Assembly (NCBI GenBank): GCA_963668695.2
Contig: CAXXLQ010000004.1
Span: 3,072,001-3,136,000 of the forward strand
From: Vicinamibacteria bacterium
GTDB lineage: Bacteria > Acidobacteriota > Vicinamibacteria > Marinacidobacterales > Marinacidobacteraceae
Direction: 5' to 3'
DNA: 64,000 nucleotides
In this document: positions 2,723 through 44,200 of the stretch, piece after piece
How the letters are laid out: every line of letters starts with the position of its first letter
Position numbering within the stretch: position 1 is the first letter of the stretch
Program-made: the position numbers and the translations under genes
The notes under the pieces: generated by a model
The model's input: the letters and a program-made list of their open reading frames with translations, nothing else
Databases searched by the model: none
Told to the model about the DNA's origin: nothing

Positions 2723-3448
2723 GTGCTGCTTCGGGAAGCGGATCGCACGGCGGTCCGGAAACACTTCGAGGACCTCGCCGGCCCCGTTTCCGCCACTCTC
2801 TATTCCAGATACGACAGCTCGCTGGTGCTCCCCGGCCGGACGTCCTGTCCGACCTGCGGAACGACCGAAGCTCTACTTCGGGAGGTGGAAGAACTCTCGG
2901 AAAAACTCACCATCGAGGTGCGCGACGTAGATCAGGTTCCGAATGCGGCACGCGATGCCGGGATCGCTCGCCTGCCGGCGATCGAACTCACCGGCGTAGC
3001 GAAGGGGAGAGTCCGATTTCTGGGGCTTCCCGACGGCCATGAGTTCGGGTCGTTGATCACCGCGGCAACCTGGGTTTCCGGAGCACCTCTGACCATTTCT
3101 GAAGAGACCAGGGGGCAGTTGTCGATGCTTCGTCGCCCCCTCCACGTCAAGGTCTTCACCACCCCTACGTGACCCTGGTGTGCGCCGGCGGCCAGTCTGG
3201 CCGTCCAGTTCGCGGTCATTAGTCCCGAGGTGACCACCGACATCGTCATGGTTCAGGAATTTCCGGATCTGGCGCGGACCTACGCGGTGGCTTCGGTGCC
3301 GCTGACCGTGGTCGAACCGCTGGAAGACGGCGCCGGATTGGTCGGGCAGGGGACGTCGCTGCTGGGCGCGCGAGGAGAGGAAGCGTTCCTCTCCGCAATC
3401 GCTGAGGTGGGCGGAATCGGGAATTCGAATCAGGATCCGGGATCGTGA
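2723..3448 (+). CDS. Protein-disulfide oxidoreductase / AhpF-NTD-like two-thioredoxin-fold protein, predicted selenoprotein (Sec at TGA 3170-3172)
   Basis: ORFs 2723-3172 and 3230-3448 are in the same frame; readthrough gives KVFTTPT-U-PWC, matching the PDO C-terminal FxTPTCPxC site; N-terminal CPTC; downstream V(A)SVP cis-Pro motif. Confidence 0.9.
3187..3205 (+). promoter_or_regulatory. Putative bacterial SECIS hairpin
   Basis: GGCGGCCA-GTC-TGGCCGTC stem-loop; loop G is the 23rd nt after the UGA. Confidence 0.65.
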
Positions 3449-6612: not shown

Positions 6613-7050
6613 CTAAAGCCGCATCTTGGCCGGGAAGTGGTTCAGCCCGAGGCGTATAGCGGTACGGTCCGTCTGGTCCACGATCGCGGCGGCGTTGATG
6701 CCGATCGCGATGACGATCGCTTCGCTGATCTCTTCCTTGGTGGCCCCGAGTTTGAGGGCCTTCTTCACATGACCGTCGAGGCATCCCTCGCACTTGGCGA
6801 TTAGCGAGCAGGCGAGCGCGATGAGCTCCTGAATCTTCGGATCCAGATGCTTGTTCTCCGAAAAATAGGTCTCTTTGTAGAACTGACCGTAGATGGCCTT
6901 CATCCGCGGCTCGATCATCGAATACGACGTCAGCGCCGAGCCGTTGTTCTTCTGTCCGCCGCTTTTTTCTTTTTCGCCGCTCCCGCGCTGCTCCGGCTCG
7001 GAGTCGATGCCGGGGATCCGGGCCTCGGGGGCCGCTGCGTTGTCCGCCAT
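6613..7050 (-). CDS. Carboxymuconolactone decarboxylase / AhpD-like protein
   Basis: LDPKIQELIALA..CEGCLDGH.KKA.KLGATKEEISEA signature with CxxC. Confidence 0.88.
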   Translation of the reverse strand: MADNAAAPEARIPGIDSEPEQRGSGEKEKSGGQKNNGSALTSYSMIEPRMKAIYGQFYKETYFSENKHLDPKIQELIALACSLIAKCEGCLDGHVKKALKLGATKEEISEAIVIAIGINAAAIVDQTDRTAIRLGLNHFPAKMRL

Positions 7051-7190
7051 TCCGGATGTTGCCTCATGCCCGCCACTCTGGCCGGGACTTCGTCTCGGGG
7101 GGACGGCGGGTGGAGCGGCCGCTTGTCTGGCGCCGCCCGCTCAGCGCGTCGAAAAGGGAGTAACCGGTGAAGGTTAGCATCAGGGAAACG

Positions 7191-7655
7191 ATGCAGACCT
7201 TTCGATGTTCCGTAGCCTTGACGGCTCCGCTCGACGCGGTCTTTGGGTTCTTTTCGAACACCAGGAATCTGGAGGTGCTGACCCCGCCGTGGCTCCGCTT
7301 CCGGGTACTCACAGAAGGAGAGATCCCGATGTCCCGCGGCACGCAGATCGACTATCGGCTGCGGCTTCGCGGTCTACCGCTCCGGTGGCGTAGCGAGATC
7401 ACCGCGTGGGAGCCGCCGCATCGCTTTGTGGACGAACAGGTAGCTGGCCCCTACCGGAGCTGGGTTCATGAACACCGCTTCGAGGCCCGCGAGCGGCCGG
7501 GCAGGGACCCGGTGGTGGTCGCTCATGATGAAGTGCACTACCAGGCCCCGGGCGGAAGGTTCGTGAACCGGTTCCTGGTTGCGCCTGACCTCGAACGAAT
7601 CTTCGCCTACCGCACCAAACGGCTGAGGGAGCGGTTCGGAACGCCCGGCGGCTGA
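7191..7655 (+). CDS. SRPBCC family protein
   Basis: VFGFFS..RNLE.LTPPW, FVDEQVAGPYRSWVHEHRF and LERIFAYR motifs; alternative start at 7167. Confidence 0.88.
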   Translation: MQTFRCSVALTAPLDAVFGFFSNTRNLEVLTPPWLRFRVLTEGEIPMSRGTQIDYRLRLRGLPLRWRSEITAWEPPHRFVDEQVAGPYRSWVHEHRFEARERPGRDPVVVAHDEVHYQAPGGRFVNRFLVAPDLERIFAYRTKRLRERFGTPGG

Positions 7656-7796: not shown

Positions 7797-8300
7797 GCCG
7801 GTCTGAAGACCGGCGTTCCCAAGCCGCGCCAGCGGCTTCGGATAAGCACCGCCTCCTTCATCGGAAGTCGCGAAGGGCTGTCCTGGGTCCGGATCGTGGC
7901 TCAATCCCGATCGGAAGTCGCCCTCGCGACTTCGCATCCGCAGCCATGTCGCACCGGGGGCCCGCCCGCATATCAGGGCGCGCTTATCGGACGCCGCGCC
8001 AGCGGCTTCGGATAAGCACCGCCTCCTTCATCGGAAGTCGCGAAGGGCCGTCCTGGGTCCGGATCGTGGCTCAATCCCGATCGGAAGTCGCCCTCGCGAC
8101 TTCGCATCCGCAGCCATGTCGCACCGGGGGCCCGCCCGCATATCAGGGCGCGCTTATCGGACGCCGCGCCAGCGGTCGGACGCCGCGCCAGCGGTCTTCG
8201 GATAAGCACCGCCTCCTTCATCGGAAGTCGCGAAGGGCCGTCCTGGGTCCGGATCGTGGCTCAATCCCGATCGGAAGTCGCCTTCGCGACTTCCGATAAG
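7797..8300. repeat. REP-like hairpin followed by three tandem ~170-190 bp structured repeats (family C)
   Basis: GCCGGTC-TGAA-GACCGGC at 7797-7814; unit CGGATAAGCACCGCCTCC...GAAGTCGCGAAGG...CCYTCGCGACTTC starts near 7838, 8009 and 8198; lies between convergent genes. Confidence 0.85.
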
Positions 8301-8358
8301 GATGCTTATGTTAAATAACGAGGACAGTGAGCCGCGTCGTCCCGGAGAACAGCGGACA

Positions 8359-9258
8359 TCACCCCTGCTCGCGAAACGCCGTCACGTCGCGGTGGAAGAC
8401 GAATAGCGAATCCATGTCTTCCGACGGCGATTCGAAGTTGTAGGTTCGCCCGCCAAGCACCTTCACACGCAGGTTGTTGCTCAGGTAGTCCAGCTCGAAG
8501 CGTTCCGCCTGTGCGAACGGCAACTGGAAAGCATCCTTGTGATCCGTCCGGTAGTCGAACCCCTGGGGAGTTGCGACGAGCGTCCCTTCGCAGGATCCGA
8601 ACCGATGTTTGTGTACCACGGCCACCTTGACGTCCAGTGACGCCACCAGGTCGCCGAACACCACTCGCACCGGCACCGCTCTCCTTTCGACCGCCACCCG
8701 ACGGGAAACGATGTCGTGCCCCTCGGTAGACACCGTCAGGTTGTACTCCCCGGGCTGAAGATCCGCGATCGTGACCGGGGTGTTTCCCTTGAAGTTCCGG
8801 TCGATAAAGACGTTCGCTCCGGCGATGTCACTCTCCACGACGATGGACCCGAGCATTTCGGCGAGGGTCGCCGCCAACGAGCGGGTGCGGCCACCGCGGA
8901 TGGTGACGCTGACCTCCAGGGGATGGAAGCCTTCCTTCTCCACTCGAACCGGGTACTCACCGGCATCCAGGTCTTCCCAGGTGCCCGGAACCGTGCCAAG
9001 CACCCGGCCGTCCAGAATGACACTGGCGCCATCGGTGCCCTCGATCTGCAGGGTACCGGTGGTGGGCGGTGCCGGCGGTGGCGGCGGTGGCGCTCGCTCT
9101 GGTTCCGGCGCCTTGACCGGCGTCTCGTCGGCCGGTGCGGCTTCTTCCTCCGGGGCCGCAGGCTCCTCGCCTCCCCCACATCCTGCCAAGGCGCCGACCC
9201 CCGCCAGCAGGGCCAGTGACCCGAAGAGAATGCGCGCCCACTCAGCGAGGCGAATCAT
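8359..9258 (-). CDS. PEGA domain lipoprotein
   Basis: LAGC lipobox, Pro/Glu linker, two PEGA repeats (GASVILDG..LGTVP; GANVFID..FKGNTP), C-terminal HKHRFGSCEGTL domain. Confidence 0.85.
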   Translation of the reverse strand: MIRLAEWARILFGSLALLAGVGALAGCGGGEEPAAPEEEAAPADETPVKAPEPERAPPPPPPAPPTTGTLQIEGTDGASVILDGRVLGTVPGTWEDLDAGEYPVRVEKEGFHPLEVSVTIRGGRTRSLAATLAEMLGSIVVESDIAGANVFIDRNFKGNTPVTIADLQPGEYNLTVSTEGHDIVSRRVAVERRAVPVRVVFGDLVASLDVKVAVVHKHRFGSCEGTLVATPQGFDYRTDHKDAFQLPFAQAERFELDYLSNNLRVKVLGGRTYNFESPSEDMDSLFVFHRDVTAFREQG

Positions 9259-9760
9259 TCACGGAGCCCCCCACCTCACGGTAACCCCGGTCGTAGTAGA
9301 GAAGCGGTGCGGCGTCCTCCCGCTCTACCCTGCCCTCGGTCACCCGGCCGATGAACAGCGTGTGATCGCCCTCCCGGTGGGCGCCGACCGTGCTGCACTC
9401 GAGCCAACCGATACAGCCGGACAGTCGTGGCGGGTACCCAGCCCCGCCAGCCGCCACCGCTGCAGCAAGAGACTCGCCGAACTGATCGGCCGAGTCCAAC
9501 CCCGGCTTCGCGAAGTGGCCCGAGACGTCAGCCTGATCAGCAGCGAGAAGGTGCACCCGAAATCCCCCGGCGGCGATCGCAGCATGCGCCCGGGCGGCGT
9601 TCATGATGGAGACGAGCACTAACGGCGGTTCGAGACTCACGGGGATGAACGAACTGACGGTGATCCCTCTCGGCCCCTCTGGACCGCTCGCGGTCACGAC
9701 GGTCACAAGTTGCGGAGCGCGGCGCATCAGAGCACGAATCTCCGAGGCCGCGTCGCTCAT
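9242..9760 (-). CDS. Flavin reductase-like protein
   Basis: VTVVT, GITVSSF.PVSLEPPLV, GDHTLFIG and PLLY motifs. Confidence 0.92.
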   Translation of the reverse strand: MSDAASEIRALMRRAPQLVTVVTASGPEGPRGITVSSFIPVSLEPPLVLVSIMNAARAHAAIAAGGFRVHLLAADQADVSGHFAKPGLDSADQFGESLAAAVAAGGAGYPPRLSGCIGWLECSTVGAHREGDHTLFIGRVTEGRVEREDAAPLLYYDRGYREVGGSVNDSPR

Positions 9761-9764
9761 CCAG

Positions 9765-10244
9765 CTACGACCGCGTCTCGTCCAGTTCCTCGAAATCGGC
9801 TGTATAGCTGATGTCCACGGCGCCCTTCAGGGTGTTTGCGAGAGGGCAGCCGCGCTCATGGAAACGGAGGGCCCGTTCCGCTTCTTCGCGTTTACCGGCC
9901 GGCAACGCCACTTGGTACCGGATCCGGATGGCGCGCAACGCCATGACGCCGCCCTCGTCCACGATGTCGCCTTCGATTTCTGCCGAGAGCCGATCCGGCT
10001 GGCTCGGGATGCCGCGTACTTCGAGCGCCCGCCCGAACGTCCCCACCATTCAACCACCGGTGGCGGCCACCACGTAGTCAAGGGTCGCCGGCAACTCTTC
10101 CGCTGGCGTTACCCCATAGAAGGCAGCGATTCCGCTGTGGACGCCGAAACGGACCGGCTGCTCGAAGTCCTCAAGGAATGCCTGCCGGACCGGACCAGCC
10201 TGCTTGATGACCCGGGCGTGGCAGGTATGGACAACTTTGCTCAT
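9765..10244 (-). CDS. OsmC/Ohr-like protein, predicted selenoprotein (Sec at TGA 10052-10050)
   Basis: ORFs 10050-10346 and 9765-10049 abut in frame: LDYVVAATGG-U-MVGTF at the first OsmC Cys position; second Cys in HERGCPLANTL; ATG 10244 overlaps the upstream stop (ATGA). Confidence 0.88.
10020..10037 (-). promoter_or_regulatory. Putative bacterial SECIS hairpin
   Basis: Minus strand TTCGGGC-GGGC-GCTCGAA; loop G is the 20th nt after the UGA. Confidence 0.65.
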
Positions 10245-10786
10245 CGCGACTCTACGAAGATCTCGGAATGGAGCATCTTCACCGGGGCTCCGGCCTTCGC
10301 CGTCGGCAGGGACAGTTCCAGGGTGGTGCTGGTAGGAGCACTGCACGCGTTGTCCGTACAGAGCTGGTAGCGAACCAGCACTTCCGCATCCGCCGAACGT
10401 CCGCTCTTGAGGACAGAAGTAACGGGAATGCGGATCGCCACCGTCCCTTCGTAGAGATCGTATTCACCAAGACCGGAAAGATCCCGCCGGATCGGCTCCG
10501 GATAGAACGGCTGTCCGCTTTCGAAAGCCCCACCCTGGGCCAGTTCCACGACCGTGGCGGTGGGGAATGCCTCTTCGGGTCCGTAGAGGTGGTATCCCTC
10601 TTCGAGTTCTGCGACTACCGCGACTTCGAAGCTGTCGCCGGGACGCACCGGGGACTGGGAGGCCACCAACTCGAAGCGCGCCGCGTTCTCCCAATCGGGA
10701 ATCATCGGCGCCTGGGCGGCAAGGGCGGCAGCAAGGCCGCCGGACACGGTCAGGGCGAGGCCGGACAGCAGGAGAGAGTGTTTCAT
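10241..10786 (-). CDS. Secreted DsbD N-terminal (alpha) domain protein
   Basis: Signal peptide; GYHLY, YEG.V.I.IP and YQLCTDNAC..P motifs typical of DsbD-alpha. Confidence 0.85.
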   Translation of the reverse strand: MKHSLLLSGLALTVSGGLAAALAAQAPMIPDWENAARFELVASQSPVRPGDSFEVAVVAELEEGYHLYGPEEAFPTATVVELAQGGAFESGQPFYPEPIRRDLSGLGEYDLYEGTVAIRIPVTSVLKSGRSADAEVLVRYQLCTDNACSAPTSTTLELSLPTAKAGAPVKMLHSEIFVESR

Positions 10787-10817
10787 GGGACGAAACTCCT
10801 TGGGATTGGGCTCGCGA

Positions 10818-11390
10818 TCAGGATCCGGCGAGACGGGAGAGCTCGGAAAGGATCTCCTTGGGGGAGGTCCGGTCGCGGTAGTTCACCCACACGTTGACGA
10901 ACCGAACTACGCCGTCACCATCCACGATGATGGTTGCCGGATGGGGAATGCCTTCCCGCTCCGTGCCATTGTGCTCCGGATTGGGGATGCCGTATTCGCT
11001 GATGACCTGACCTCCGTCCACCATGATCGGGAACGTCCAGTCATTCTTCGAGAGCCACATCAGGGTGTCCCCCACCCCGTATTTGGAAACGCCGAGTACC
11101 GTGACGCCGCGCGCCTCGAACTGATCCAGGGACTCTTGCAACTCGCCGAGTTGCGCAATGCAGAATGGTCACCAACCGCCACTGCGGAAGAACTCAAGAA
11201 CGACCGGCCCTCGCTTCACGAGTTCGGAGAGTCGGTAGGAGGCGCCGTGGGCGTCCTTCAGTTCGAAATCGGGCGCGCGGGCACCAACCTTCACCGTCGG
11301 GGTGTCGGTGCCCTGCGCGGATCCGCTGGAAGGGGCGAGGCCCGTGGCCAAGCCGACGGCCAGCAATGCAGAGACAGGAAGTCGAGACAT
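10818..11390 (-). CDS. Exported AhpC/TSA (peroxiredoxin-like) redoxin, predicted selenoprotein (Sec at TGA 11171-11169)
   Basis: VGARAPDFELKD...GPVVLEFFRSGGW-U-PFC..QLGEL continues in frame into ORF 10818-11141 (PHPATIIVD.DG.VRF); N-terminal signal peptide. Confidence 0.92.
11138..11154 (-). promoter_or_regulatory. Putative bacterial SECIS hairpin
   Basis: Minus strand GCAACTC-GGC-GAGTTGC; loop G is the 22nd nt after the UGA. Confidence 0.65.
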
Positions 11391-11568
11391 GCGGGCCATT
11401 TTAGCCCGGCTGTTTCGATGCCAAGAAGACGGCCAAGGCCGAAAGGAACGATTCGTCTCCTACGGGTTTCCTGGTCGATCAGCGGCTAACCACGAATTGC
11501 GGCGCATAACGGGCCGCCCCACCAGCATTGGCCGCCGGCGTTCACCTTCGGGGACCCTGTCGATCTGT

Positions 11569-12444
11569 CTATCCTGTTGATTCACCTTCGCTTGTGTCCG
11601 ATGTCGGCGCGCCGACATCCTCACGTTGTTCTTCAAGCTGCCGTAACAACGTGCGGAGTGCCTCCACCACTTCCGCCTCCTCGACCTCACTGCGCCGGAA
11701 GGTCAACTGGAGGCGAAAGGGGCCGCCCTTGGGGGCGAACCGGAAGACAAACGGTCGCGCTCGTTCTCCCTTGGACTTTCTGCGCTTCGGGATCGGTTCA
11801 TTCAGTCCCTGGGCGAGGCGTTGGACGCACGCCAGCATGGCCTCGACATTCGGCTCGCGGGCCACTCGCAGCAACTGTCGACGAGACACGATCCCCGACG
11901 CCCAGGAGACCTCGCGGATCTCTTCCGGAATGTTGAGCAGGGCAAGCGTCTCCGTGATCGAGGTGCGTCCTTTGCCCACCCGGCGGGCGAGAGAGTCGTG
12001 AGTGTGTCCATGCTCCCTGATGAGCCCCTCGTACGCGGTGGCCTCCTCAAAGGGAGACAGGTCGTCCCGGAGCAAGTTCTCCACCAGAGCCAGCTCGAGG
12101 GCGTCCCCTGCCCCCGCCTCCCTCTCGATGCAGGGCACTTCGCGCAATCCGGCCAGCACCGCCGCCCGGTAGCGGCGTTCGCCAGCGATGATCTGAAAGT
12201 CCTTCGAGCCCAGTCGGCGCACCAGGATCGGCTGCAGGATTCCCTGGTCCCGGATCGAGGTGGCGAGCGGTTCCAGCGCTCCGATGCGTTGGCGCGGCTG
12301 ATCGGGATTGGGGTGGATCTGAGCGGTTGGGATCATCCGTTGACGGGCGCCCGGCTCATCGGGGGTCAGCCCCGCCACGTAGTGGCTGTCACGCGGTTTC
12401 AAGCTGACTTTTTCAGGAAGACCGGTTCGTTTGGACACGGGCAA
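11569..12444 (-). CDS. parB: ParB/Spo0J partition protein
   Basis: PNPDQPR, GILQPILVR, IIAGERRYRA (GxxRxxA), ENLLRDDL, HTH. Confidence 0.93.
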   Translation of the reverse strand: MPVSKRTGLPEKVSLKPRDSHYVAGLTPDEPGARQRMIPTAQIHPNPDQPRQRIGALEPLATSIRDQGILQPILVRRLGSKDFQIIAGERRYRAAVLAGLREVPCIEREAGAGDALELALVENLLRDDLSPFEEATAYEGLIREHGHTHDSLARRVGKGRTSITETLALLNIPEEIREVSWASGIVSRRQLLRVAREPNVEAMLACVQRLAQGLNEPIPKRRKSKGERARPFVFRFAPKGGPFRLQLTFRRSEVEEAEVVEALRTLLRQLEEQREDVGAPTSDTSEGESTG

Positions 12445-13189
12445 GCACCTCCCGAGACAGATGTCGGTAATCCTCAGCTCCTCGAGAGTTGGGGGCGAAC
12501 GTGAAGATGGACTCCTTGTACGCAGGACTCTCCTCGAGTCGGACGTTGCGGCTGATCAGCGTTCGGAATACCGCTTTCCCGAAATGCCCGCGGATCTTGC
12601 GGATCGCGTCCCGGGCAATCCGCGTCCGCTGATCGGCCATGGTGATCACCACCCCGAGGATGGACAGATCCGGATTGGGGCGCCGGCGGACCTGCTCGAG
12701 CGTGTCGAGGAGATCGTCGGCCCCTTCGAGGGCGTAGTACGTCGGCGGCAGCGGCAACAACAGATAGTCACTGGCAACCAGCGCATTCACCGTGATGAGC
12801 CCCAGGGTGGGAGGGGTGTCGATCACCACGAAATCGAACTGCTCCCGGACATACTGGATCCGATCCCGGAGCCGGTAATGGGCGTCGATGTCGCCAAGAA
12901 GTTGGCGCTCCAATTTGGCCAGCGAGATGCGCGCCTCGGCCACCGACAGGCGTTCCACCGATGTGGGCCTGATGATGTCCGCGAACCGCACCTCACCCGT
13001 CAGAGCCTCGAGCATTGAGGCTCTGGATGGGTCCGGGCCGATGACACTTACCGAGGCGTTTGCCTGTGGGTCCACATCAACGAGCAGCGTGCGGTGTCCG
13101 GCGTCCGCGAACGCCGCCGCCAGGTTGACCGCGGTCGTGGTCTTGGCCACCCCGCCCTTCTGATTGGCGACGGTGATGGTGGCGCGCAT
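12413..13189 (-). CDS. parA: ParA/Soj ATPase
   Basis: NQKGGVAKTTT deviant Walker A, DVDPQAN, IDTPP. Confidence 0.95.
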   Translation of the reverse strand: MRATITVANQKGGVAKTTTAVNLAAAFADAGHRTLLVDVDPQANASVSVIGPDPSRASMLEALTGEVRFADIIRPTSVERLSVAEARISLAKLERQLLGDIDAHYRLRDRIQYVREQFDFVVIDTPPTLGLITVNALVASDYLLLPLPPTYYALEGADDLLDTLEQVRRRPNPDLSILGVVITMADQRTRIARDAIRKIRGHFGKAVFRTLISRNVRLEESPAYKESIFTFAPNSRGAEDYRHLSREVLARVQTNRSS

Positions 13190-24330: not shown

Positions 24331-25359
24331 GGGGATTACATACCTGAGTGACCATTTTTGGCTCTAGGCTCGCCTAGAGTCAGGTGCATGGCACACAGCG
24401 CACCCGGGAAGCACTACCGCAAGGGTCTCACCTTGCCGCAGGTCATGCGGACGTTCCGCGATGACGCCGCCGCTGAGCGATGGTTCGCCAAGGTCCGGTG
24501 GCCCGACGGCCCCCGCTGCCCCGGCTGCGGAACCGCCGACGTCCGGGCCGGGACGGCGCACAAATCCATGCCTTACCGCTGCCGCCCCTGCCGCCGCTAC
24601 TTCTCCGTCCGCATCGGCACCGTCATGGAGGACTCGAAGCTCGGCTACCAGACCTGGGCGCTCGCCATCTACCTCCTCACCACCGGCCTCGAAGGCCAGT
24701 CCTCCATGAAGCTCCACCGCGACCTCGGGATCACGCAAAAGTCGGCCTGGCATCTGGCCCACCGGATTCGGGAGACCTGGCGCGACGCACCGGCGCCCTT
24801 CGGGGGACCCGTCGAAGTGGACGAGGCCTACATCGGAGGGAAGAGGAGGAACATGAGCCTGGCCAAGAGGAGGGAAATGGCCGGCCGCGGACCCGTCGGA
24901 AAGACGATGATCGCCGGCGCCCAGAACCGGAAGACCGGCGAGATCAACGCCGCCGTCCTTCCCGACGGGACTTGGCGCGCCCTCCGGGAGTTCGTCCGGG
25001 AAGCGGCGGTGCCGGGTGCCCAGCTCTTCACGGACGACTCGGACGCCTACTCGGCTTTGCCGGAGTTCCGGCATGAGAGCGTCCATCACACGGTCCGGGA
25101 ATACGTCCGCGGGGAGGTTCACACGAACGGCATCGAAGCCTTCCGGTCGCTGCTCAAGCGGGGCTATGTCGGCACCTATCACCGCATGAGCCCGAAGCAC
25201 CTGGGTCGCTACGTGGACGAGTTCGCCGGCCGCCACAACATCCGGAGTGCCAACACCGTGGAGCAGATGCGAACCATCTCCCGCGGGTTCCTCGGACGAA
25301 GGCTGGAATACGCCACCCTCATCGCCACCCGGTGATGGTCACTCAGGTATGTAATCCCC
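24331..25359 (+). mobile_element. IS1595-family insertion sequence
   Basis: Perfect 25-bp TIR GGGGATTACATACCTGAGTGACCAT (24331-24355 / 25335-25359) enclosing a transposase. Confidence 0.93.
24388..25335 (+). CDS. IS1595-family transposase
   Basis: RWPDG..CP.C...YRC..C Zn ribbon, VEVDEAYIGG, TD, HTNGIE and SPKHLGRYVDEF motifs. Confidence 0.93.
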   Translation: MAHSAPGKHYRKGLTLPQVMRTFRDDAAAERWFAKVRWPDGPRCPGCGTADVRAGTAHKSMPYRCRPCRRYFSVRIGTVMEDSKLGYQTWALAIYLLTTGLEGQSSMKLHRDLGITQKSAWHLAHRIRETWRDAPAPFGGPVEVDEAYIGGKRRNMSLAKRREMAGRGPVGKTMIAGAQNRKTGEINAAVLPDGTWRALREFVREAAVPGAQLFTDDSDAYSALPEFRHESVHHTVREYVRGEVHTNGIEAFRSLLKRGYVGTYHRMSPKHLGRYVDEFAGRHNIRSANTVEQMRTISRGFLGRRLEYATLIATR

Positions 25360-26635: not shown

Positions 26636-27580
26636 ATGCAGCAAACCCTCGCCCCTGCCCGGTACCAACAGCAGACGTCCTCTCCCCAATTCGGCCGGTC
26701 ACCTGCCTCCCGCAAACTTCCCAGTAAACCCCCAGACCCTCGGGGCTCCCACCCTGCCCTGTCGACCCCCCTGCCGACTCCCCTGTCGACCCCTGACTCA
26801 GGACTTCTGAAATGGGGGCTTGCCCGGCTTGCCGGCAGTCTGGTGGAAATCTCTGGAACGGCTGATTCGGGAGTCTTGTCCTCAGCGCTGGCGCTTGTTG
26901 CCGAGGCCCAGCATCATCAGGCCCGACACCACAAACAGTGTCACGGCCTGCATCCCGGTTCGCATCCGGATCCTGCTGCAGGTCCTGCTCTGGTCGCCTG
27001 GGTGGCGACAACCCACAGCCTCTTCTTCCCTCCGGACGCGTTGGAGTCCGGGATCGCTCTGGAGCGATTGGTTCTTCTTCGACTGGAAACACCGGCGGCG
27101 CAGATCCGCGCCGCTACCCGAATTGTCCACTCGGGAGCTTTTGGGCTGGTGATCGTGGACCTTGCCGATTCGGTTCAGCCGGAGAGGCCGGCCCGGAAGC
27201 CGATCCCGGAATCCATCGTGACATCCCCGCGACTTCAGAGCCCAAGAACCCAAAGATTGGAAACCCGGAATCTGATGTCCCGTCCGAACACCCCCCTCGG
27301 GGTTCCTCCCCTGTCACGGCTTGCCGGACTCGCGCACAAATACCGAACCGCTGTCGTTCTGCTGACCGACAAGCCGCCGGCCGCCCCATCGATCGACCCC
27401 CGGGTGGGGAAGCGTTTCGACGCGAGCCGCAGGGGTAACGACATCGTCATCACCGTTCTCAAGGACAAGGGAAGCCGAGGTTCTTTCTCTCCGGAATTTC
27501 CGCCGCTCCGCGACAGGGATCGCCTTTTCCCCGGATTCCGTTTCGAAAGGAAATGCCGTGAGCCGGCTGGCATGTGTTGA
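26636..27580 (+). CDS. imuA: ImuA-like inactive RecA-fold protein
   Basis: LAGSLVEISG with degenerate Walker A, FFPPD...GI.LERL and SGAFGLVIVD; located between lexA and imuB. Confidence 0.8.
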   Translation: MQQTLAPARYQQQTSSPQFGRSPASRKLPSKPPDPRGSHPALSTPLPTPLSTPDSGLLKWGLARLAGSLVEISGTADSGVLSSALALVAEAQHHQARHHKQCHGLHPGSHPDPAAGPALVAWVATTHSLFFPPDALESGIALERLVLLRLETPAAQIRAATRIVHSGAFGLVIVDLADSVQPERPARKPIPESIVTSPRLQSPRTQRLETRNLMSRPNTPLGVPPLSRLAGLAHKYRTAVVLLTDKPPAAPSIDPRVGKRFDASRRGNDIVITVLKDKGSRGSFSPEFPPLRDRDRLFPGFRFERKCREPAGMC

Positions 27581-29195
27581 CGTTCCGGCGCTGCCGCTAC
27601 AGATCTTGCTCCGGCGTCATCCCGAATGGCGGCAGGAACCGGTGGCGGTGGTCACCGAGGACAAAACGCAGGCGCGGGTTCGCTGGGCAAACCGCCGGGC
27701 AGTCACTCTCGGGGTGCGTCCGGGCATGCGGCAAGTGGCTGCAGTCGCCTGCTGTCCCGCGCTCCGGGTCGACCATGTCCGCTCTTCGGAAGTAGAACAG
27801 GAAGTCCGCCGACTGGCAGAGCGGCTCCATCGCTGGAGCCCTCAGGTCGAATCGGCTTCATCCCTTGGTCCGCAATTTGCCGGATTCGGTGCTGCCGGAA
27901 CTTTCTGGCTTCGGGCATCCGGCCTGGCCGGATTGTTTGGTCCGCTTTCAGATTGGACCGACGCACTCCACAAGGATCTCGTGGAAGACGGTTTTCATGT
28001 CTCGATCGCAGTGGGTTTCAACCGGTTCGGAACCTTTGCGGCGGCGCGGGCCATCTTCGGGCTGCAGATCTTTGAAAGTCCCACCGAGGAGAAAACCGCC
28101 GCCCTCAGGGCGCCGCTAGTTCGCTTCGGACTGTCGGAGAAGACCCTCGCCAGTCTGGAAAAACTCGGCATCTCATCTCTTCGAGACTTGCTGCGCTTGG
28201 CCGGGAATGGACTGTCCGGGAAAGGACTGGCGAGCCGCTTTGGGAAAGAAGTTCTGGAACTCCATCGTCTTTCATCCGGGGAGAATCCCACGCCCGTTTG
28301 CGACGTCTTCCGCCCGGAAACGCCGATCGAACAACGGATTTCCTTCGAGCCGCCCGAGGTCGGCATCGAACGGCTCATCTTCCACGCGAAGCGCCTCCTT
28401 GATCAGATCCTCGCCGATCTCGGCAAACAGGGGCTCGCGCTTGTCGAGCTCGCCTACGAAATGGAATGCGAGGACGCCCCGCCAATTTCCGGATCGGTCC
28501 GCCCCGCCCTTCCCACCGAAGACAGCGTGAAGCTTCTCTCCCTGCTCCGCCTGCGGCTCAGAACCATCTCCCCGGAAAACAGGGCAATCGCCAGGGGGCA
28601 GGCAGGTGAACCCGGAAGAAGGATCCTCGCCCTCGTTCTCCGTGCTCGCGGCGGCCTTTACGTCTCCGAACAGCCCGGCTTGTACCAAAGCCCCTTGTAC
28701 CAAAGCTCCGACAAGGCTCTTTCCCGGGGTCCGAAAAAGGCGTCGGAAGCGCTGGCCCAGGTTCAGGCCGAGTTTGGCGAGGACTCCCTGGTCCGATTGG
28801 AAACCCGGGATGCACATCTTCCCCGGGGGCGCTATCGCTGCCGGCCGGTCTCCCCGGAAAAGGCCGTCTCCTGCAGTTGCTCAAGCAAAAGCTTCCCGAA
28901 GGAATTTTTCGAGACCCGAGCGCCTCGCCTGATCCGCCGCATTTACGACCAGCCGCTCATCCTTCCCCATCGGGGTTCGGAGGAACCGGACGGCTGGCTG
29001 CTTCGGGGAATCGAACACGGTCCCGTTCAGAGTTACACCGGGCCCTATCGCATCTCCGGAGGCTGGTGGCGCCTCCTTTCGGGACGGCCGATCTCTCGCG
29101 ACTACTTTTTTGTCCGCCTGAAGCGCGGCGATGTCTGCTGGGTTTTCTTCGACCGGGAGCGACGCTCATGGTTCCTCGAAGGCCGCGTCGAATGA
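27558..29195 (+). CDS. imuB: ImuB, catalytically inactive Y-family polymerase-like protein
   Basis: GVRPGM, WSPQVE, QPGLY clamp-like motif, C-terminal GPYRISGGWW...RDYF...WFLEG. Confidence 0.9.
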   Translation: MSRLACVDVPALPLQILLRRHPEWRQEPVAVVTEDKTQARVRWANRRAVTLGVRPGMRQVAAVACCPALRVDHVRSSEVEQEVRRLAERLHRWSPQVESASSLGPQFAGFGAAGTFWLRASGLAGLFGPLSDWTDALHKDLVEDGFHVSIAVGFNRFGTFAAARAIFGLQIFESPTEEKTAALRAPLVRFGLSEKTLASLEKLGISSLRDLLRLAGNGLSGKGLASRFGKEVLELHRLSSGENPTPVCDVFRPETPIEQRISFEPPEVGIERLIFHAKRLLDQILADLGKQGLALVELAYEMECEDAPPISGSVRPALPTEDSVKLLSLLRLRLRTISPENRAIARGQAGEPGRRILALVLRARGGLYVSEQPGLYQSPLYQSSDKALSRGPKKASEALAQVQAEFGEDSLVRLETRDAHLPRGRYRCRPVSPEKAVSCSCSSKSFPKEFFETRAPRLIRRIYDQPLILPHRGSEEPDGWLLRGIEHGPVQSYTGPYRISGGWWRLLSGRPISRDYFFVRLKRGDVCWVFFDRERRSWFLEGRVE

Positions 29196-29229
29196 CACGT
29201 GGAAAGACAACGGATGGATAGCCCGGGCT

Positions 29230-32200
29230 TTGTACTTTCCTCTTTTCTGCAAGAGCAACGCTTCCTTCCTGGAAGGGGCGAGTCATCCTGAAGAACTGAT
29301 CGAGGAGGCCCACGCCCTCGGTCTTCCCGGGATTGCACTCACCGACCGGAACGGCCTGTACGGAGCCGTCAAGGCTCATGTCGCGGCACGGGAGCGGGGT
29401 ATCCGGTTGGTACTCGGCGCCGAAACATCGGTGGCGGCGGCCGCAACCGGAGGAGGCAGGCCAAGCGAACAGGGAAGCATCCTCCTGCTCGCCCGGAACC
29501 GGACCGGTTACCGGAATCTGTGCCGGCTCCTGACCCGGGGGCTGTTACGAGGCCCCGGCGCCGTCTCTGACAAAGACCCGAAGGGGAATTCCCTGGGCAT
29601 CCAATCCGGAACGGGCGGACCACCATCCCGTAAGGGAACCGCCGGCGTTTCCTGGGAAGAGATCGCTTCTCATGCCGAAGGGCTTCACGCACTCTGGGGA
29701 GGAGGCGTCTCCGCCCTCAAGCAGGAAACCCCTCCCGAGAAGCCGGCGCACCTGCTCCGGGAGGCTTTCGGGGAAAACATCCATGTCCTCATTACCCGGC
29801 ACCGGGCTGACAACGACGTTCCAGCAGAGGCCCTTCTTCGCCAGCGGGCGAAGCAGTACCGGATCCCGATAGCCGCCGCTACCGAGGTGCTCTACCACCG
29901 TCCGGGACGCCGGGAACTGCAGGATGTGCTCACGGCCATCCGTCACGGCGTGCCACTTCAGGGTGCCGGACGGCGTCTTCGTCCGAACGCGGAGCACTAC
30001 CTGCTTTCCCCTGCCCTATTCGCCGAACTCTTCGCCGACGATCCGGTCGCGGTCGCCCGAACCCTGGAAATCGCCGAGACCTGCCGCTTCTCGCTCGACG
30101 AACTCCGTTACCGATACCCCGCCGAGGATCTTCCCGGGGGCATGAATTCTTCAGCGCGACTCCGGGAACTGACGTTCGCAGGCGCAGCCGAGCGTTATCC
30201 CAGCGGCATTCCACCGGCGGTCAGACAGCAACTGGAAAAGGAACTGGCGCTGATCCGTGAGCTCGACTACGGCGGTTACTTCCTCACCATGGTCGAGATC
30301 GTGCGGTTTTGTCGTGAGCAGGAAATCCTCTGCCAGGGACGGGGCTCGGCAGCAAACTCGGCCGTCTGCTACTGCCTCGGCATCACTGCGGTGGACCCGG
30401 TGCGAATGGGACTTCTATTTGAGCGATTCCTGTCCCGCGAGCGCGCCGAGCCACCCGATATTGACCTGGACATCATGCATTCGCGGCGGGAAGAGGTCAT
30501 CCAGTTCCTGTACCGCAAGTACGGTGAGGGACGCGCCGCCATGGTGGCCAACACCGTCTGTTATCGGACCCGGTCGGCAATCCGGGAGGTGGGCAAGGCG
30601 CTCGGATTTTCCGAGCGATCCGTGGATCGCCTGGCCCGCGCTTTTTCTCATCACGAACCACTCTCGAGTGACCGGTTGTCCGCTGCCGGCTGGTCTTCGG
30701 AGGGACCAGCAGCCCACCATCTCCTCCGTCTCGCAAACGAGATCCAGGGGTTTCCGCGACACCTCTCGATTCATCCCGGCGGATTCCTTCTCGGAGAGGA
30801 GCCGGTCTCTCACATCGTGCCCGTCGAAAACGCCGCGATGGAGGGAAGAACGGTCATCCAGTGGAACAAGGACGACATCGAGGAACTGGGCCTTTTCAAG
30901 GTGGATCTGCTGGGACTCGGAGCCCTGACCCAACTGGATCTCTGTTTCCGGATGCTCCGGAACTCACGGGGGCTCGATATCTCCATGGCCAGCATCCCCG
31001 CCGGCGATCCGGAAACTTTCGCGATGATCCGGAATGCCGCAACCATCGGTGTTTTCCAGATCGAAAGCCGGGCCCAAATGGCCATGCTGCCGCGACTTCA
31101 GCCCCGGAACTACTACGACCTGGTGATTGAAGTGAGCATCGTTCGGCCCGGGCCCATCGCCGGAGGAATGGTGCATCCCTACCTCCGCCGCCGCCGGGGG
31201 GAAGAAGCGGTGGAATACCCTCACCCGTCCCTCCGGCCCGTTCTGGAAAAGACCCTTGGGGTACCGTTGTTTCAGGAACAGGTGATGCGGCTCGCGGTGG
31301 TCGCCGCCGACTACACCGCCGGCGAGGCCGATCAACTCCGCCGCGATATGGCTGCCTGGCGGCGCACTGGCCGGATGGAACGGCATCGGAGCCGCCTGCT
31401 TTCCCGGATGTGCGCCAAGGGGATCGCTCCCGAGTTCGCGAAACGCGTTTTCGAGCAGATTCAGGGATTTGGCGAGTACGGCTTTCCCGAAAGCCACGCC
31501 GCCAGTTTCGCTCTCATCAGCTATGCCGGCGCTTTCCTGCTCCGTCACTACCCGGCGGAGTTCGCATGTGCGCTGCTGAATGCGCAGCCGATGGGTTTTT
31601 ATGCTCCGGCAACAATCATCGAGGACGCCAAACGACGGGGAGTGCGCTTTCTTCCGGTGGATGTGACTGCGAGTAGCTGGGACTGTTCGCTGGTTACTGG
31701 CTCCACATCCTCCAGAGAAGCCGGGAAACCGGATGTCCGCATCGGCCTCCGCTACGTGAAGGGGCTCGGGTCCGTCGATGGAGAGAAGATCGTGGCGGCT
31801 CGCCGGGAGTCGCCCTTCTCTTCCATCGCCGCCTTGGCCCGCCGTACCGGTCTTGGGAAAAAGGTGATGGTTGCGCTTGCCGAGGCGGATGCACTCCAGA
31901 ACCTCGGGCCGAAAAACCGACGCGATGCGCTTTGGCAGGCGCTTGCGGCGACACCGGAAGACCCGCCCCTCCTGCGGGAAACCGTTCCCGACTTTGCCTC
32001 GCTGGACACTTTCGAATCCATCGTCTGGGACCACCGGACAACGGGCAGCAGCACCAGAGGGCATCCCCTGCTGCCGCTACGAAGCCAGCTGACCGCCGCC
32101 GGACTGCCCACGGCCCTCGGGGTAACGAAGCTTCGAAACGGGACGCGAGCGCGTTACGCGGGGATTGTGATCTGCCGCCAACGGCCGGGAACCGCTTCCG

Positions 32201-32430
32201 GGGTGGTGTTCATGACCCTGGAAGACGAAACCGGATTCGTGAATCTCGTCCTCTGGCCGGACGTCTTCGAAGAGCATCGCCACCTGGCTCAGACCCTGTC
32301 GTTCCTCGGAGCCGCCGGCCGGATTCAGGCGGAACAGGGCGTCACCCACATCGTGGTGGACCAACTCTTCCGGCCTCGGATTTCAAGGATGCCGGAACCA
32401 CCGGAGGTTCCGAGCCGCGATTTCCATTGA
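29230..32430 (+). CDS. dnaE2: Error-prone DNA polymerase DnaE2 (ImuC)
   Basis: SNASFLEGASHPEEL, CQGRGSAANS, EPPDIDLD, GFPRHLSIHPGG, YGFPESHAASF and C-terminal SRDFH; start tentatively TTG 29230. Confidence 0.96.
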   Translation: MYFPLFCKSNASFLEGASHPEELIEEAHALGLPGIALTDRNGLYGAVKAHVAARERGIRLVLGAETSVAAAATGGGRPSEQGSILLLARNRTGYRNLCRLLTRGLLRGPGAVSDKDPKGNSLGIQSGTGGPPSRKGTAGVSWEEIASHAEGLHALWGGGVSALKQETPPEKPAHLLREAFGENIHVLITRHRADNDVPAEALLRQRAKQYRIPIAAATEVLYHRPGRRELQDVLTAIRHGVPLQGAGRRLRPNAEHYLLSPALFAELFADDPVAVARTLEIAETCRFSLDELRYRYPAEDLPGGMNSSARLRELTFAGAAERYPSGIPPAVRQQLEKELALIRELDYGGYFLTMVEIVRFCREQEILCQGRGSAANSAVCYCLGITAVDPVRMGLLFERFLSRERAEPPDIDLDIMHSRREEVIQFLYRKYGEGRAAMVANTVCYRTRSAIREVGKALGFSERSVDRLARAFSHHEPLSSDRLSAAGWSSEGPAAHHLLRLANEIQGFPRHLSIHPGGFLLGEEPVSHIVPVENAAMEGRTVIQWNKDDIEELGLFKVDLLGLGALTQLDLCFRMLRNSRGLDISMASIPAGDPETFAMIRNAATIGVFQIESRAQMAMLPRLQPRNYYDLVIEVSIVRPGPIAGGMVHPYLRRRRGEEAVEYPHPSLRPVLEKTLGVPLFQEQVMRLAVVAADYTAGEADQLRRDMAAWRRTGRMERHRSRLLSRMCAKGIAPEFAKRVFEQIQGFGEYGFPESHAASFALISYAGAFLLRHYPAEFACALLNAQPMGFYAPATIIEDAKRRGVRFLPVDVTASSWDCSLVTGSTSSREAGKPDVRIGLRYVKGLGSVDGEKIVAARRESPFSSIAALARRTGLGKKVMVALAEADALQNLGPKNRRDALWQALAATPEDPPLLRETVPDFASLDTFESIVWDHRTTGSSTRGHPLLPLRSQLTAAGLPTALGVTKLRNGTRARYAGIVICRQRPGTASGVVFMTLEDETGFVNLVLWPDVFEEHRHLAQTLSFLGAAGRIQAEQGVTHIVVDQLFRPRISRMPEPPEVPSRDFH

Positions 32431-41248: not shown

Positions 41249-44200
41249 TTAGCGGGCGAAAGAAGGCGGCAACTTTCCATCGAGGCGCACACTGTCCGGC
41301 CCCAGGAGTTCGGTCGCGGCTCGCGCCAGACTGCGGCAGGCGTGAACCGGAGTCGCCGTCTCCAGGATGAATTCGACCCCGGGAACGCGCAGCCTGAGCA
41401 GCAGAGGTTTCTCGCCAGGATGATGCGCGAGCAGATCCTGCAACGGAGCCTCCGTGTTCTCCGGCTCGGTCACCGACAGTTCCACCCGGCGGGCGAGTCG
41501 GAACGGCGCCTCGTCGGCGAGCAGGACTTCGGAAGCGACCAACTCGCCCCTCTGGGGGCCGCGGCCGCTCCCTCCAGATCCGCCGGTCTCGCTCTTGAAC
41601 CGCCCTCGTACGACGACCACCGGCTCGCTCTCCAGAGGGGGACACGTCTCCCACAGGTCCGGGAACACCACCACCCCGATCGCCCCCGTTTCGTCTTCAA
41701 GGGTGAAGTTACCCATCGGGCGGCCCGCCCTGGTGGTCCGCTTCCGCAGTTCGCGCACGAGTCCGACGACCCCGACCTCCGCCTTGTCTCCGGCCTTTAG
41801 CGCCGCCTCGACCGGACCGGTGACCACGGTTCCCAGTTCGGCGCGGTATTCGGTTGCCGGATGTCCTTCCCAGTAGAAGCCGAGCGCCTCGCGTTCACGC
41901 CGCAGCCGCTCCGCATCACTCCACGGCGGAGCGTCAGGAAAGACGTCAACGGAGGTTTCATTCGCGCTCCCGAAGAGGGACTGGACCCCGGCGTCCTTCC
42001 GGCCGCGAGCGCGATTGGCCGCTCCCATGGCCCCCGGGATCGCCGGGAGAATCCGCCAGCGCGGAACCTTCAGGAAATCGAGTGCCCCGGCGCAACAGAG
42101 TGCCTCTACGACTCCCCGGTTGAGAGCTTTCGGCGCCACAACCTCGAGAAGATGGTGCAGCGACTCGAACTCGCCGTATTCGCGCCGCGCGCGTTCGATT
42201 TCCCGCGCGGCTCGATTGCCAACCTGCTTGACCGCCTCCAGGCCCCAGCGGACCCCCTGCCCCTCCACGAGAGCCTCCGCACCGCTGTGCTGAACGCTGG
42301 GTGGAAGCACGGCAATCCCCGCGGCCTCGGCGCCATTCCGGATACGCGCGATCCTCTCGTCCTTGTCTCCCGACCGGTGTTGCGCGGTGAGCAGCGAAGC
42401 GAGGAAGTGCAACGGGAAGTGGGTCTTGAGCCAGCCCGCCACGTATGCCACGAGCGCATATCCCACGGCATGAGAACGGTTGAACCCGTAGCCGGCGAAC
42501 TTCGCTATCTGCTGGAACGTCTCCTCGGCGACCCGGCGGGCCAGACCGCCCGCCACGGCTCCCTCGACGAAGCGCCCTTCCTCGCGGCGCATCACTTCCG
42601 GGTCTTTCTTGCCCATCGCCTTTCGCAGAATGTCCGCCTGACCGAGCGAAAACCCGGCCAACTGCTGCGCCACCAGCATGACCTGTTCCTGGTAGACGAT
42701 CAGCCCCCGGGTTTGTGGAAAAAGAGCGCGCACGCGCGGATCCAGCTTGCCCGACAACCCGCCCTTCTTCTTGGCCGCAACAAAGTCATTCGCCATGCCG
42801 CTCTCGAGGGGGCCGGGTCGGTACAACGCGTTGAGCGCCGCCAGATCGTCCAGGGTTTCCGGTTTGTAGCTGGAGAGCAGCTCGCGCATCCCGCGGCTTT
42901 CGAACTGGAAGATGCCGTCGGTGTCCGCCCGCCCAAACAGCAAGAAGGTCTGGCGATCCCGCGGCACCTTTTCGAACCGGCCCGCGCGAATGTGTTCGAG
43001 CGCCGCCGTTTCCTCGGGCGTGCGGGCAGTGCTGTCGTCTTCCTGCACCCGCCGCGCGCAGTCATCGATCTGCGTAAGGCTTCGCAGTCCGAGGAAATCC
43101 ATCTTGAAGAGCCCGGCTTTCTCGCAGTCCTTCATGTCCCACTGGGTGCGGCGGCGAACGGTCACCTCCCTGCCTGAATCGGTTCCGTTCCGGCCGGATC
43201 CCGGGCCCTTGGTCTCCACGTCGCGGTAGAGGGGCAAGATCTCCTCGAGTGGTCCCGGGGCGATGACCACCCCGGCGGCATGGGTCCCGATGTTCCGTGG
43301 CAAACCCTCGAGCCGTTCCGCCAGTTCGAAAAGACGGGCGGTCTCCGGCGCCTGCTTCGCTTCACGGAGTTCCGGAACGCTCTCCACGGCCTGCGCGAGG
43401 CCCATGCCCTCGGGGATCAGCTTTGCGATGCGGTCCACCTGGGGCGGCGGCAACTCCAGCATCCGGCCCACATCGCGGACCACCAGCTTGGCCTGCATGG
43501 TCCCGAAGGTCATGATCTGCGCCACCCGGTCGCTGCCGTACGTCGCGGCCACATAGTCGAGCACCTCCTCGCGCCGAAATTCGCAGAAATCGATATCGAT
43601 GTCCGGCGGGCTCACCCGTTCCGGATTCAGGAAGCGCTCAAACAGGAGGCCATGCGCGAGGGGATCGATATCGGTAATGCCCAGCGCGTAAGCGACCAGG
43701 CTGCCCGCGGCCGATCCCCGGCCCGGTCCCACCGGAATCCGGCGGTCCCGGGCGTAGCGGACGAAGTCCTGCACGATGAGGAAGTACGCGGAATACCCGG
43801 TCCGCCGGATCACCTCCAGCTCCCTCGTGAGCCGGTCGTCATAGTCAGACCGGGTGGGGCGAATCCCGTGGACCTCCGGCGATTCGAGGCGCCAGGACAG
43901 CCCCCGGCGCGCACTCTCCTCCAGGTATCCGTCCAGGTTCTTTCCCTCGGGCACTTCGAAGCGCGGGAGCAGGTTTCCTTCTTCGACAACGTCGAAATCC
44001 TCAATTTGCTCGGCGATTTCGAGGGTGTTCCGGTAAGCGTCGGGGCAGCCTTCGAAAACGGTTTCCATTTGTTCCGACGTCTTGAAGAAGAACTGATCCG
44101 AATGGAACTTCAGCCGTCGCGGGTCGCTTACCGGACGGTTCACGCTGATGCACAGCCGCATATCGTGCGCTTCGGCGTCTTCCGGCGACGAGTAGTGAGA

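Follow-up and report, generated by a model that had tools for sequence, protein, structure and literature searches.

The stretch of DNA analysed here, a window of 64,000 nucleotides with a G+C content of 66%, originates from a Vicinamibacteria bacterium (GenBank assembly GCA_963668695.2, contig CAXXLQ010000004.1, positions 3,072,001 to 3,136,000) and carries on its minus strand, at coordinates 11399/11390..8359, a cluster of five genes, two of which very likely encode selenoproteins. The five genes encode an exported peroxiredoxin (Prx)-like redoxin, a free-standing DsbD-alpha-like protein, an OsmC-fold protein, a NAD(P)H:flavin reductase and a PEGA-domain lipoprotein. The cluster is a real and conserved operon, probably co-transcribed, on the chromosome of a member of the Vicinamibacteria related to Candidatus Marinacidobacterium. 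Its redox genes are read here, with somewhat better than even confidence, as two redox modules placed in two compartments and containing two genuine selenoproteins, and not as the single relay that had been proposed in an earlier, first-pass annotation of the window. The features on which this reading is based are the following:

11403..11398, minus strand: -10-like hexamer TAAAAT, 7 nt before the ATG at 11390.
11399 (or second ATG, 11390)..10818, minus strand: gene for a Prx-like (AhpC/TSA-fold) exported selenoredoxin; open reading frame (ORF) of 193 aa, stop TGA at 10820..10818; Pfam AhpC-TSA, 101 bits.
11171..11169, minus strand: in-frame UGA, position 77 (U77) of the Prx-like gene, very likely selenocysteine, in the motif W-U77-P-F-C80.
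11154..11138, minus strand: selenocysteine insertion sequence (SECIS)-like hairpin of the Prx-like gene, GCAACUC-GGC-GAGUUGC, with the stem starting at nt 18, counting from the U of UGA.
10786..10241, minus strand: gene for a free-standing exported DsbD-alpha-like protein of 181 aa with Cys143 and Cys148; Pfam DsbD_N, 47.8 bits (cut-off 25).
10244..9765, minus strand: gene for an OsmC-fold selenoprotein of 159 aa with U65 and C133; Pfam OsmC, 47 bits.
10052..10050, minus strand: in-frame UGA, position 65 (U65) of the OsmC gene, very likely selenocysteine, in the motif G-G-U65-M-V-G-T, the second Cys being at position 133.
10037..10020, minus strand: SECIS-like hairpin of the OsmC gene, UUCGGGC-GGGC-GCUCGAA, with the stem starting at nt 16, counting from the U of UGA.
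9760..9242, minus strand: gene for an HpaC/FerA-like NAD(P)H:flavin reductase of 172 aa; Pfam Flavin_Reduct, 139 bits.
9258..8359, minus strand: gene for a PEGA-domain lipoprotein of 299 aa; Pfam PEGA, 97.6 bits.

Both in-frame UGA codons very likely encode selenocysteine (Sec), as judged from comparison with related sequences. Across 46 related loci, which were gathered by alignment of DsbD-alpha, the TGA was found to be conserved in all of the aligned copies (39/39 at the Prx site and 40/40 at the OsmC site), even where the proteins are only about 46-50% identical, and the coding sequence to either side of it is conserved as well. The codons of the partner Cys residues alternate between TGC and TGT, always specifying Cys, and Cys80 of the Prx-like protein is kept in 39/39 loci; the AhpC-TSA match of this protein (residues 38-167) runs across the UGA. 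At the OsmC site the homologues provide Cys evidence as well. The sole full-length public relative (P0165) has Cys at site 65 (GGC-LTGTF), while the remaining 63 of the 64 public OsmC relatives are C-terminal fragments of 89-96 aa that begin just after the TGA, as expected from the first-pass statement that standard annotation would split the selenoproteins. A search of 1.84 billion representatives, from which the best 150 matches were taken, yielded 98 sequences spanning position 65 (73 with Cys, 4 with Trp (W), and 21 with another residue or a gap), 24 ending at residue 64 and 17 beginning at residue 66, the latter two groups looking like gene calls split at the TGA. The four W-containing representatives (P0191, P0235, P0287 and P0300) look like products of gene calling under a code in which TGA specifies Trp, and not like real Trp.

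At both sites a hairpin with a G in its apical loop is located shortly 3' of the UGA, which is the arrangement that defines a SECIS element. The Prx hairpin (GCARCUC-GGY-GAGYUGC, 7 bp) is 100% paired across 31 distinct sequences and contains one covarying pair (GC in 18, AU in 11 and GU in 2), which changes via synonymous CAA/CAG (Gln) and TTG/CTG (Leu) codons; its observed covariation score was attained by none of 500 shuffles. The OsmC hairpin is intact in 22/22 distinct near-clade sequences, with UA (18) or CG (11) as basal pair, and 12 distant OsmC sequences have instead a shifted hairpin, CGCGCRC-UGGAR-GYGCGCG. When single sequences 3' of the two UGAs were folded, the energies did not surpass those of shuffles (z of -0.2 to +1.0), and this uninformative result leaves conservation and covariation between sequences as the support for the hairpins. 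A longer, minimum-free-energy OsmC hairpin (UUCGGG...CCCGAG) was considered and rejected, its 3' arm being changed in approximately seven aligned rows as seen by eye, uncounted.

It is extremely improbable that the two TGAs are true stops in split or decaying pseudogenes, or that TGA has been reassigned to another amino acid. Such an explanation would agree with the public gene calls, which assume stops at the TGAs, with the W found in 4/98 representatives, and with one result that weighs against Sec, namely that no tRNA (ARAGORN), no Rfam match and no selA, selB or selD were found in the 64-kb window (51 ORFs). It is at odds, however, with the invariance of both TGAs between conserved coding sequences, with the presence of Cys at the site in homologues and with the covarying hairpins. 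In addition, TGA is the normal stop of the Prx-like, DsbD-alpha and reductase genes, here and in most relatives, which excludes a genome-wide reassignment. The first-pass reading of both codons as Sec is retained, with one correction: U77 of the Prx-like protein is the first residue of a thioredoxin-type UxxC motif and does not correspond to the peroxidatic Cys.

The five genes are separated by 31, -4, 4 and -17 nt, and their coordinates and Pfam domains agree with the five co-directional genes described before. The start of the OsmC gene lies on the stop (TGA) of the DsbD-alpha gene in an ATGA overlap, which is kept in 26 out of 27 near-clade loci (L001-L027), and the PEGA gene begins within the last 17 nt of the reductase gene. 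No curated NCBIfam cut-off was reached by any of the five. Forty-five of the 46 loci belong to the Acidobacteriota (Vicinamibacteria, Candidatus Marinacidobacterium or Marinacidobacterales), and the 46th, a fused ORF with 32% identity, comes from a Wallbacteria genome. Conservation of the gene order, on which the first-pass annotation had staked its proposal beforehand, was observed: 30 out of the 46 loci hold all five genes with order and strand unchanged, and several of the others end early at contig boundaries. The deeper clade (L028-L045) possesses additional genes, comprising an HTH_25 gene upstream, a protein tyrosine phosphatase-like gene after the PEGA gene, a gene for a 148-aa single-pass membrane protein between DsbD-alpha and OsmC (e.g. 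L035:6537-6986), and one for a V4R-domain protein with a conserved Cys after the reductase (e.g. L035:7931-8440); a homologue of the membrane protein or of the V4R protein was not found in the window. The membrane protein matched no Pfam family, and its ESM Atlas matches were all below 0.9.

The operon probably has its own promoter, from which, as judged from the position of the -10-like hexamer, a leaderless or near-leaderless transcript would be produced. A hexamer of this type (TAnAAT/TATAGT, i.e. TAAAAT, TAGAAT or TATAGT) was found 5-9 nt before an in-frame start in 26 out of 38 sequences, compared to a mean of 1.26 and a maximum of 5 in shuffled upstream regions, and this in spite of flanks that have diverged. 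The hexamer in the window, present where the first-pass annotation had called a TAAAAT -10 element, is located only 7 nt before the ATG at 11390, which points to a leaderless transcript and also supports the earlier choice of 11390 as the end coordinate; this ATG is likely the true start of the Prx-like gene. A scan with a consensus sigma-70 promoter and for terminators returned 0 promoters and 0 terminators.

The first of the two modules would be periplasmic and would consist of the Prx-like protein and DsbD-alpha, on both of which a signal-like hydrophobic N-terminus was seen by inspection, in line with the two signal peptides previously assigned to redox members of the cluster. The AF2 model of DsbD-alpha (pLDDT of 86.9) has as its 16 best listed PDB matches, including the top 10, nDsbD chains with a TMt of approximately 0.7. 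Its residues Cys143 and Cys148, whose codons are kept in 46/46 loci, match the two active-site Cys of E. coli nDsbD in the alignment, although the loop is one residue shorter. The protein thus combines the immunoglobulin (Ig)-like fold and the active-site Cys pair by which a DsbD-alpha domain is defined. Since it is encoded by a separate 181-aa ORF without the beta and gamma domains, it is not a DsbD/ScsB membrane reductase, in which alpha is fused to both, and it stands alone as had been proposed. Its relatives, among at least 120 listed, measure 169-204 aa, and a search for longer, fused relatives found none, which is weak evidence.

The Prx-like protein has AhpE, BCP and ResA as its closest solved relatives. 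In the alignment with AhpE, U77 takes the place of the Thr in the Prx motif TxxC, C80 that of the peroxidatic Cys, and Pro154 that of the catalytic Arg. As both the PxxxT/SxxCp motif and the conserved Arg that define a true peroxiredoxin are lacking, the protein cannot be regarded as one. It does possess the PF00578 fold and the UxxC motif, and on these sequence features it belongs to the known 'Prx-like UxxC' kind of selenoprotein, a family of Prx-like thiol:disulfide oxidoreductases described from the Sargasso Sea and Global Ocean Sampling (GOS) metagenomes in the available text of two papers (PMC1088965, PMC13188914).

By analogy with DsbD and ScsB, the exported AhpC/TSA-fold redoxin would exchange electrons in the periplasm, via its U-x-x-C motif, with Cys143/Cys148 of DsbD-alpha, and DsbD-alpha in turn would have to receive its electrons from a membrane protein of the CcdA/DsbD-beta type whose gene lies elsewhere. 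The analogy also suggests the direction of the electron flow, from DsbD-alpha to the selenoredoxin. To our knowledge, the sole known role of DsbD-alpha is to pass electrons to thioredoxin-fold partners, and the solved nDsbD complexes among the PDB matches have CcmG, DsbC and DsbD-gamma as partners. The latter (1vrs, the gamma-alpha complex) also provides an argument for the reversed order, in which the Sec-redoxin would act as a DsbD-gamma and electrons would pass from a CcdA-type protein to the Sec-redoxin, to DsbD-alpha and on to other envelope substrates: in DsbD it is the thioredoxin-fold gamma domain that reduces alpha, and the Prx-like protein is without the catalytic residues of a Prx. 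The persistence of DsbD-alpha in the five loci from which Prx is missing (L028, L029, L030, L033 and L045) can be argued both ways: it fits the reversed order, but it also shows that DsbD-alpha can be charged without the selenoredoxin. Exported AhpC/TSA-fold proteins are, moreover, known substrates of DsbD/ScsB: according to the available text on Caulobacter, ScsB keeps the exported Prx-like protein PrxL and the peroxiredoxin PprX reduced, and PrxL, encoded near scsB, has no detectable peroxidase activity (PMC3322552). We therefore consider the reversed order unlikely and retain the selenoredoxin as the recipient of electrons from DsbD-alpha.

The second module would be cytoplasmic, an export signal and a lipobox both being absent, by inspection, from OsmC and from the flavin reductase. 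The AF2 model of the OsmC protein (pLDDT of 96.9) has OsmC/Ohr structures as its top PDB matches (TMt up to 0.80), and in the alignment with Thermus OsmC (1ukk) its two catalytic Cys have U65 and C133 as their counterparts. The protein therefore possesses the fold and the two catalytic positions that characterize OsmC/Ohr, with Sec at the first position. Against the NCBIfam model NF041052, OsmC-related (seleno)protein (OsmC_like_Se), it scored 25.4 bits, below the cut-off of 95, and of 10 relatives (nine Cys forms plus P0191, with W) five matched this model at 19.8-27.2 bits and five did not match; on these scores the protein falls outside the curated family. Apparently damaged copies of the OsmC gene were noticed in two loci: in L028 (6970-7435) the gene is seemingly frameshifted, with two tblastn pieces in different frames, and in L041 (7036-7263) it seems to break off after about 75 codons. 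Gene decay or errors of assembly may account for both.

By analogy with the Cys enzymes, Sec65 would replace the peroxidatic Cys of an OsmC-fold hydroperoxide reductase and attack the peroxide, and Cys133 would resolve the resulting selenenic acid by forming a selenenylsulfide with it. OsmC is proposed to be recycled by the NAD(P)H:flavin reductase, which may also be just a co-regulated partner. The reductase gene adjoins that of OsmC in 39 out of the 40 OsmC-holding loci, and the remaining one, L037, breaks off within OsmC. Among PDB entries, the closest flavin reductases score 1e-19 to 1e-16; no equivalog cut-off was reached, and no oxygenase was found in the operon, the window or the annotated loci. 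Cys116 and Cys122 of the reductase were considered as a dithiol that could reduce OsmC, and this candidate was rejected: all four PDB flavin reductases that were aligned have Cys122, and Cys116 is specific to the clade (38/42). As judged from the alignment, the invariant Cys122 is a trait of the family and does not point to a special centre.

The fifth gene product carries a lipobox (LAGC, by inspection), and its C-terminal third (residues ~200-299) forms a domain that is strongly conserved and cannot be assigned to a recognised family, with H216-K-H218, C223 and F275 among the conserved positions; ESM Atlas matches of this domain were all below 0.9. In distant loci a PilZ gene on the opposite strand is located between PEGA and the other operon genes. 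Although its gene is probably co-transcribed with the redox genes at the window locus, the PEGA lipoprotein is likely a mere syntenic neighbour. Just past its stop, at 7823-8352, a tandem repeat of 170 nt was observed, with two copies that are 99% identical and a third copy with 68% identity, each of which holds a GC-rich palindrome (e.g. 8269-8303); a T-run terminator was not found there.

The proposal of the first-pass annotation, a trans-envelope relay running from NAD(P)H over the flavin reductase and Sec-OsmC to the Sec-redoxin/DsbD-alpha pair, is not supported and is considered very unlikely. In its favour are the presence of the genes in one tightly spaced operon, their recurrence together in 30/46 loci, and the 148-aa single-pass membrane protein encoded between DsbD-alpha and OsmC in the deeper clade. 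This protein, however, is without Cys in six of the seven copies compared (the L031 copy has one) and is absent from the clade of the window, and no polytopic thiol transporter is encoded in the operon or among the window ORFs scanned. Both OsmC and the reductase lack export signals, as judged by inspection. Furthermore, a 3.3-kb insertion in L034 splits Prx-DsbD-alpha from OsmC-flavin reductase while leaving each pair intact. The two selenoproteins are also lost independently: in addition to the five loci without Prx, OsmC is missing in L030, L031, L033, L036 and L042, so that L028, L029 and L045 keep OsmC without Prx, and L031 and L036 keep Prx without OsmC. The separation in L034 and these independent losses contradict a single relay and favour two modules. 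The absence of Prx catalytic residues from the 'Prx' and the position of PEGA behind PilZ likewise do not fit the relay.

Several observations weigh against two dedicated modules. The unrelated block located upstream of the operon (MiaB, BFN nuclease, ParA and ParB) keeps its synteny in 41-42 of the 46 loci and is thus just as well conserved in order, which makes conserved order by itself weak evidence of functional coupling, and the 45 close loci all come from a single class. A CcdA/DsbD-beta gene was found neither in the operon nor in the scan of 51 window ORFs. The partner oxygenase that a reductase of the HpaC type normally supplies is not present here, and it is by gene adjacency only that the reductase is linked to OsmC. 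These data would also be explained if the genes were co-transcribed stress genes whose products do not interact and depend on general reductants (thioredoxin, lipoyl proteins, CcdA), kept together by inherited synteny near parAB. This explanation, to which the separate transcription unit of PEGA in distant loci would be added, is less probable than that of two modules but has to be taken seriously. It does not readily account for the start/stop overlaps that were kept, such as that between DsbD-alpha and OsmC in 26 out of 27 loci, for the pairs Prx-DsbD-alpha and OsmC-flavin reductase staying together through the L034 rearrangement and the insertion of extra genes, or for a DsbD-alpha domain outside its known role as electron donor to thioredoxin-fold partners, as general knowledge and structures have it.

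Two modules, one in each compartment, remain our preferred reading. The genes and their domains, the Sec coding, the hairpins, the folds and the conservation are borne out by the sequences and models; where each module resides, which way the electrons run, what the substrates are and whether the reductase serves OsmC are predictions. A more ambitious version would see the operon as a selenium-dependent defence unit of the Vicinamibacteria, with the flavin reductase as a dedicated, lipoyl-independent recycler of Sec-OsmC, the free DsbD-alpha as a dedicated shuttle for the selenoredoxin, and both under one leaderless promoter; this we regard as speculative and rather unlikely. If true, such a unit would protect the cytoplasm and the envelope together by co-regulation.

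A crude TGA screen, which also recovered both operon sites, identified a third candidate selenoprotein gene in the window:

2723..3448, plus strand: gene for a two-domain protein disulfide oxidoreductase (AhpF-N-terminal-like), with an in-frame TGA at 3170..3172.

The protein has CPTC in its first repeat and T-P-T-U-P-W-C in the second, the TGA being at a CxxC position, and matched TIGR02187 (PDO_seleno_TRX) over its full length with 171.8 bits, below the cut-off of 185; counting from the U of its UGA, an 8-bp hairpin begins at nt 18.

The remainder of the window consists of ordinary chromosomal genes, including those for MiaB, Tol-Pal, two DnaE-type polymerases, RpoN, MutS and others, with ParA and ParB directly upstream of the operon (13189..11569). 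In the same orientation as the operon, an AhpD/CMD-family gene is located at 6613-7050 (minus strand), with a CEGC motif in the Cys form; it is parted from the operon by a plus-strand SRPBCC gene (7167-7655) and the repeat region, and it is syntenic downstream in 14/46 loci. At 27558-32430 (plus strand), an ImuB-like gene (IMS family) is followed by the second DnaE-type polymerase gene, the main dnaE being at 41249-44926. Two transposase genes were found, one of the IS1595 type and one DDE_Tnp_1 (24358-25335, plus strand, and 56309-57550, minus strand).

Both kinds of selenoprotein and the transfer of electrons from DsbD-alpha to redoxins are already established, and no new principle is involved. 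What is added is a conserved operon with two selenoproteins, together with a nearby third candidate, in a little-studied and widespread acidobacterial class, whose proteins of this type are systematically truncated by public gene calls. It also suggests that a selenoredoxin is paired with DsbD-alpha and a flavin reductase with Sec-OsmC, two testable partnerships which, if true, would widen the known electron supply to envelope reductive pathways and to OsmC/Ohr enzymes.

Among known selenoprotein operons, the available text of a 2026 review names grdAB, prdBC, frhA-frhD-hdrA, SAO and Tso, as well as Prx with SelW-like and Prx-like with AhpD-like (PMC13188914). Similar to these, the present operon contains more than one selenoprotein gene, for which a common redox task is presumed; none of the operons in that text joins Prx-like, DsbD-alpha, OsmC-like and flavin reductase genes. 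Neither this gene combination nor the OsmC subfamily as a selenoprotein was found described in literature searches of an incomplete collection, supplements not covered, which agrees with the first-pass remark that the combination could not be recognised as a described system.

Known Ohr enzymes use lipoyl donors, as PDB entry titles also indicate. The OsmC protein of the operon resembles the two-Cys hydroperoxide reductases of the OsmC/Ohr family in its fold and in its aligned catalytic pair, Sec65/Cys133, but its family is marked by an adjoining flavin reductase. OsmC-like (UxxT) selenoproteins have, like the Prx-like (UxxC) ones, been known since 2005, and the motif found here, GG-U-[ML]-x-G-T, differs from theirs. 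The Prx-like protein shares with its UxxC family, as far as the available text describes it, the AhpC/TSA fold, UxxC instead of TxxC/TxxU, and a SECIS with a loop G. In contrast to that family, it is exported, as judged by inspection, its gene has a fixed position beside a free DsbD-alpha gene and a second selenoprotein gene, and no NCBIfam selenoprotein model matches it above cut-off. The periplasmic pair, finally, differs from DsbD and ScsB in that alpha is a separate 181-aa protein without beta and gamma, that its partner uses Sec, and that the membrane donor is not part of the operon. In its predicted operation it would nevertheless be comparable with the transfer from DsbD-alpha to CcmG, DsbC and DsbG, with which it shares a Cys pair on an Ig-fold alpha domain and an exported thioredoxin-fold/Prx-like partner, and, within the available text on Caulobacter, with the ScsB to PrxL and TlpA-PprX system, in which the alpha domain likewise has an exported Prx-like partner (PMC3322552).

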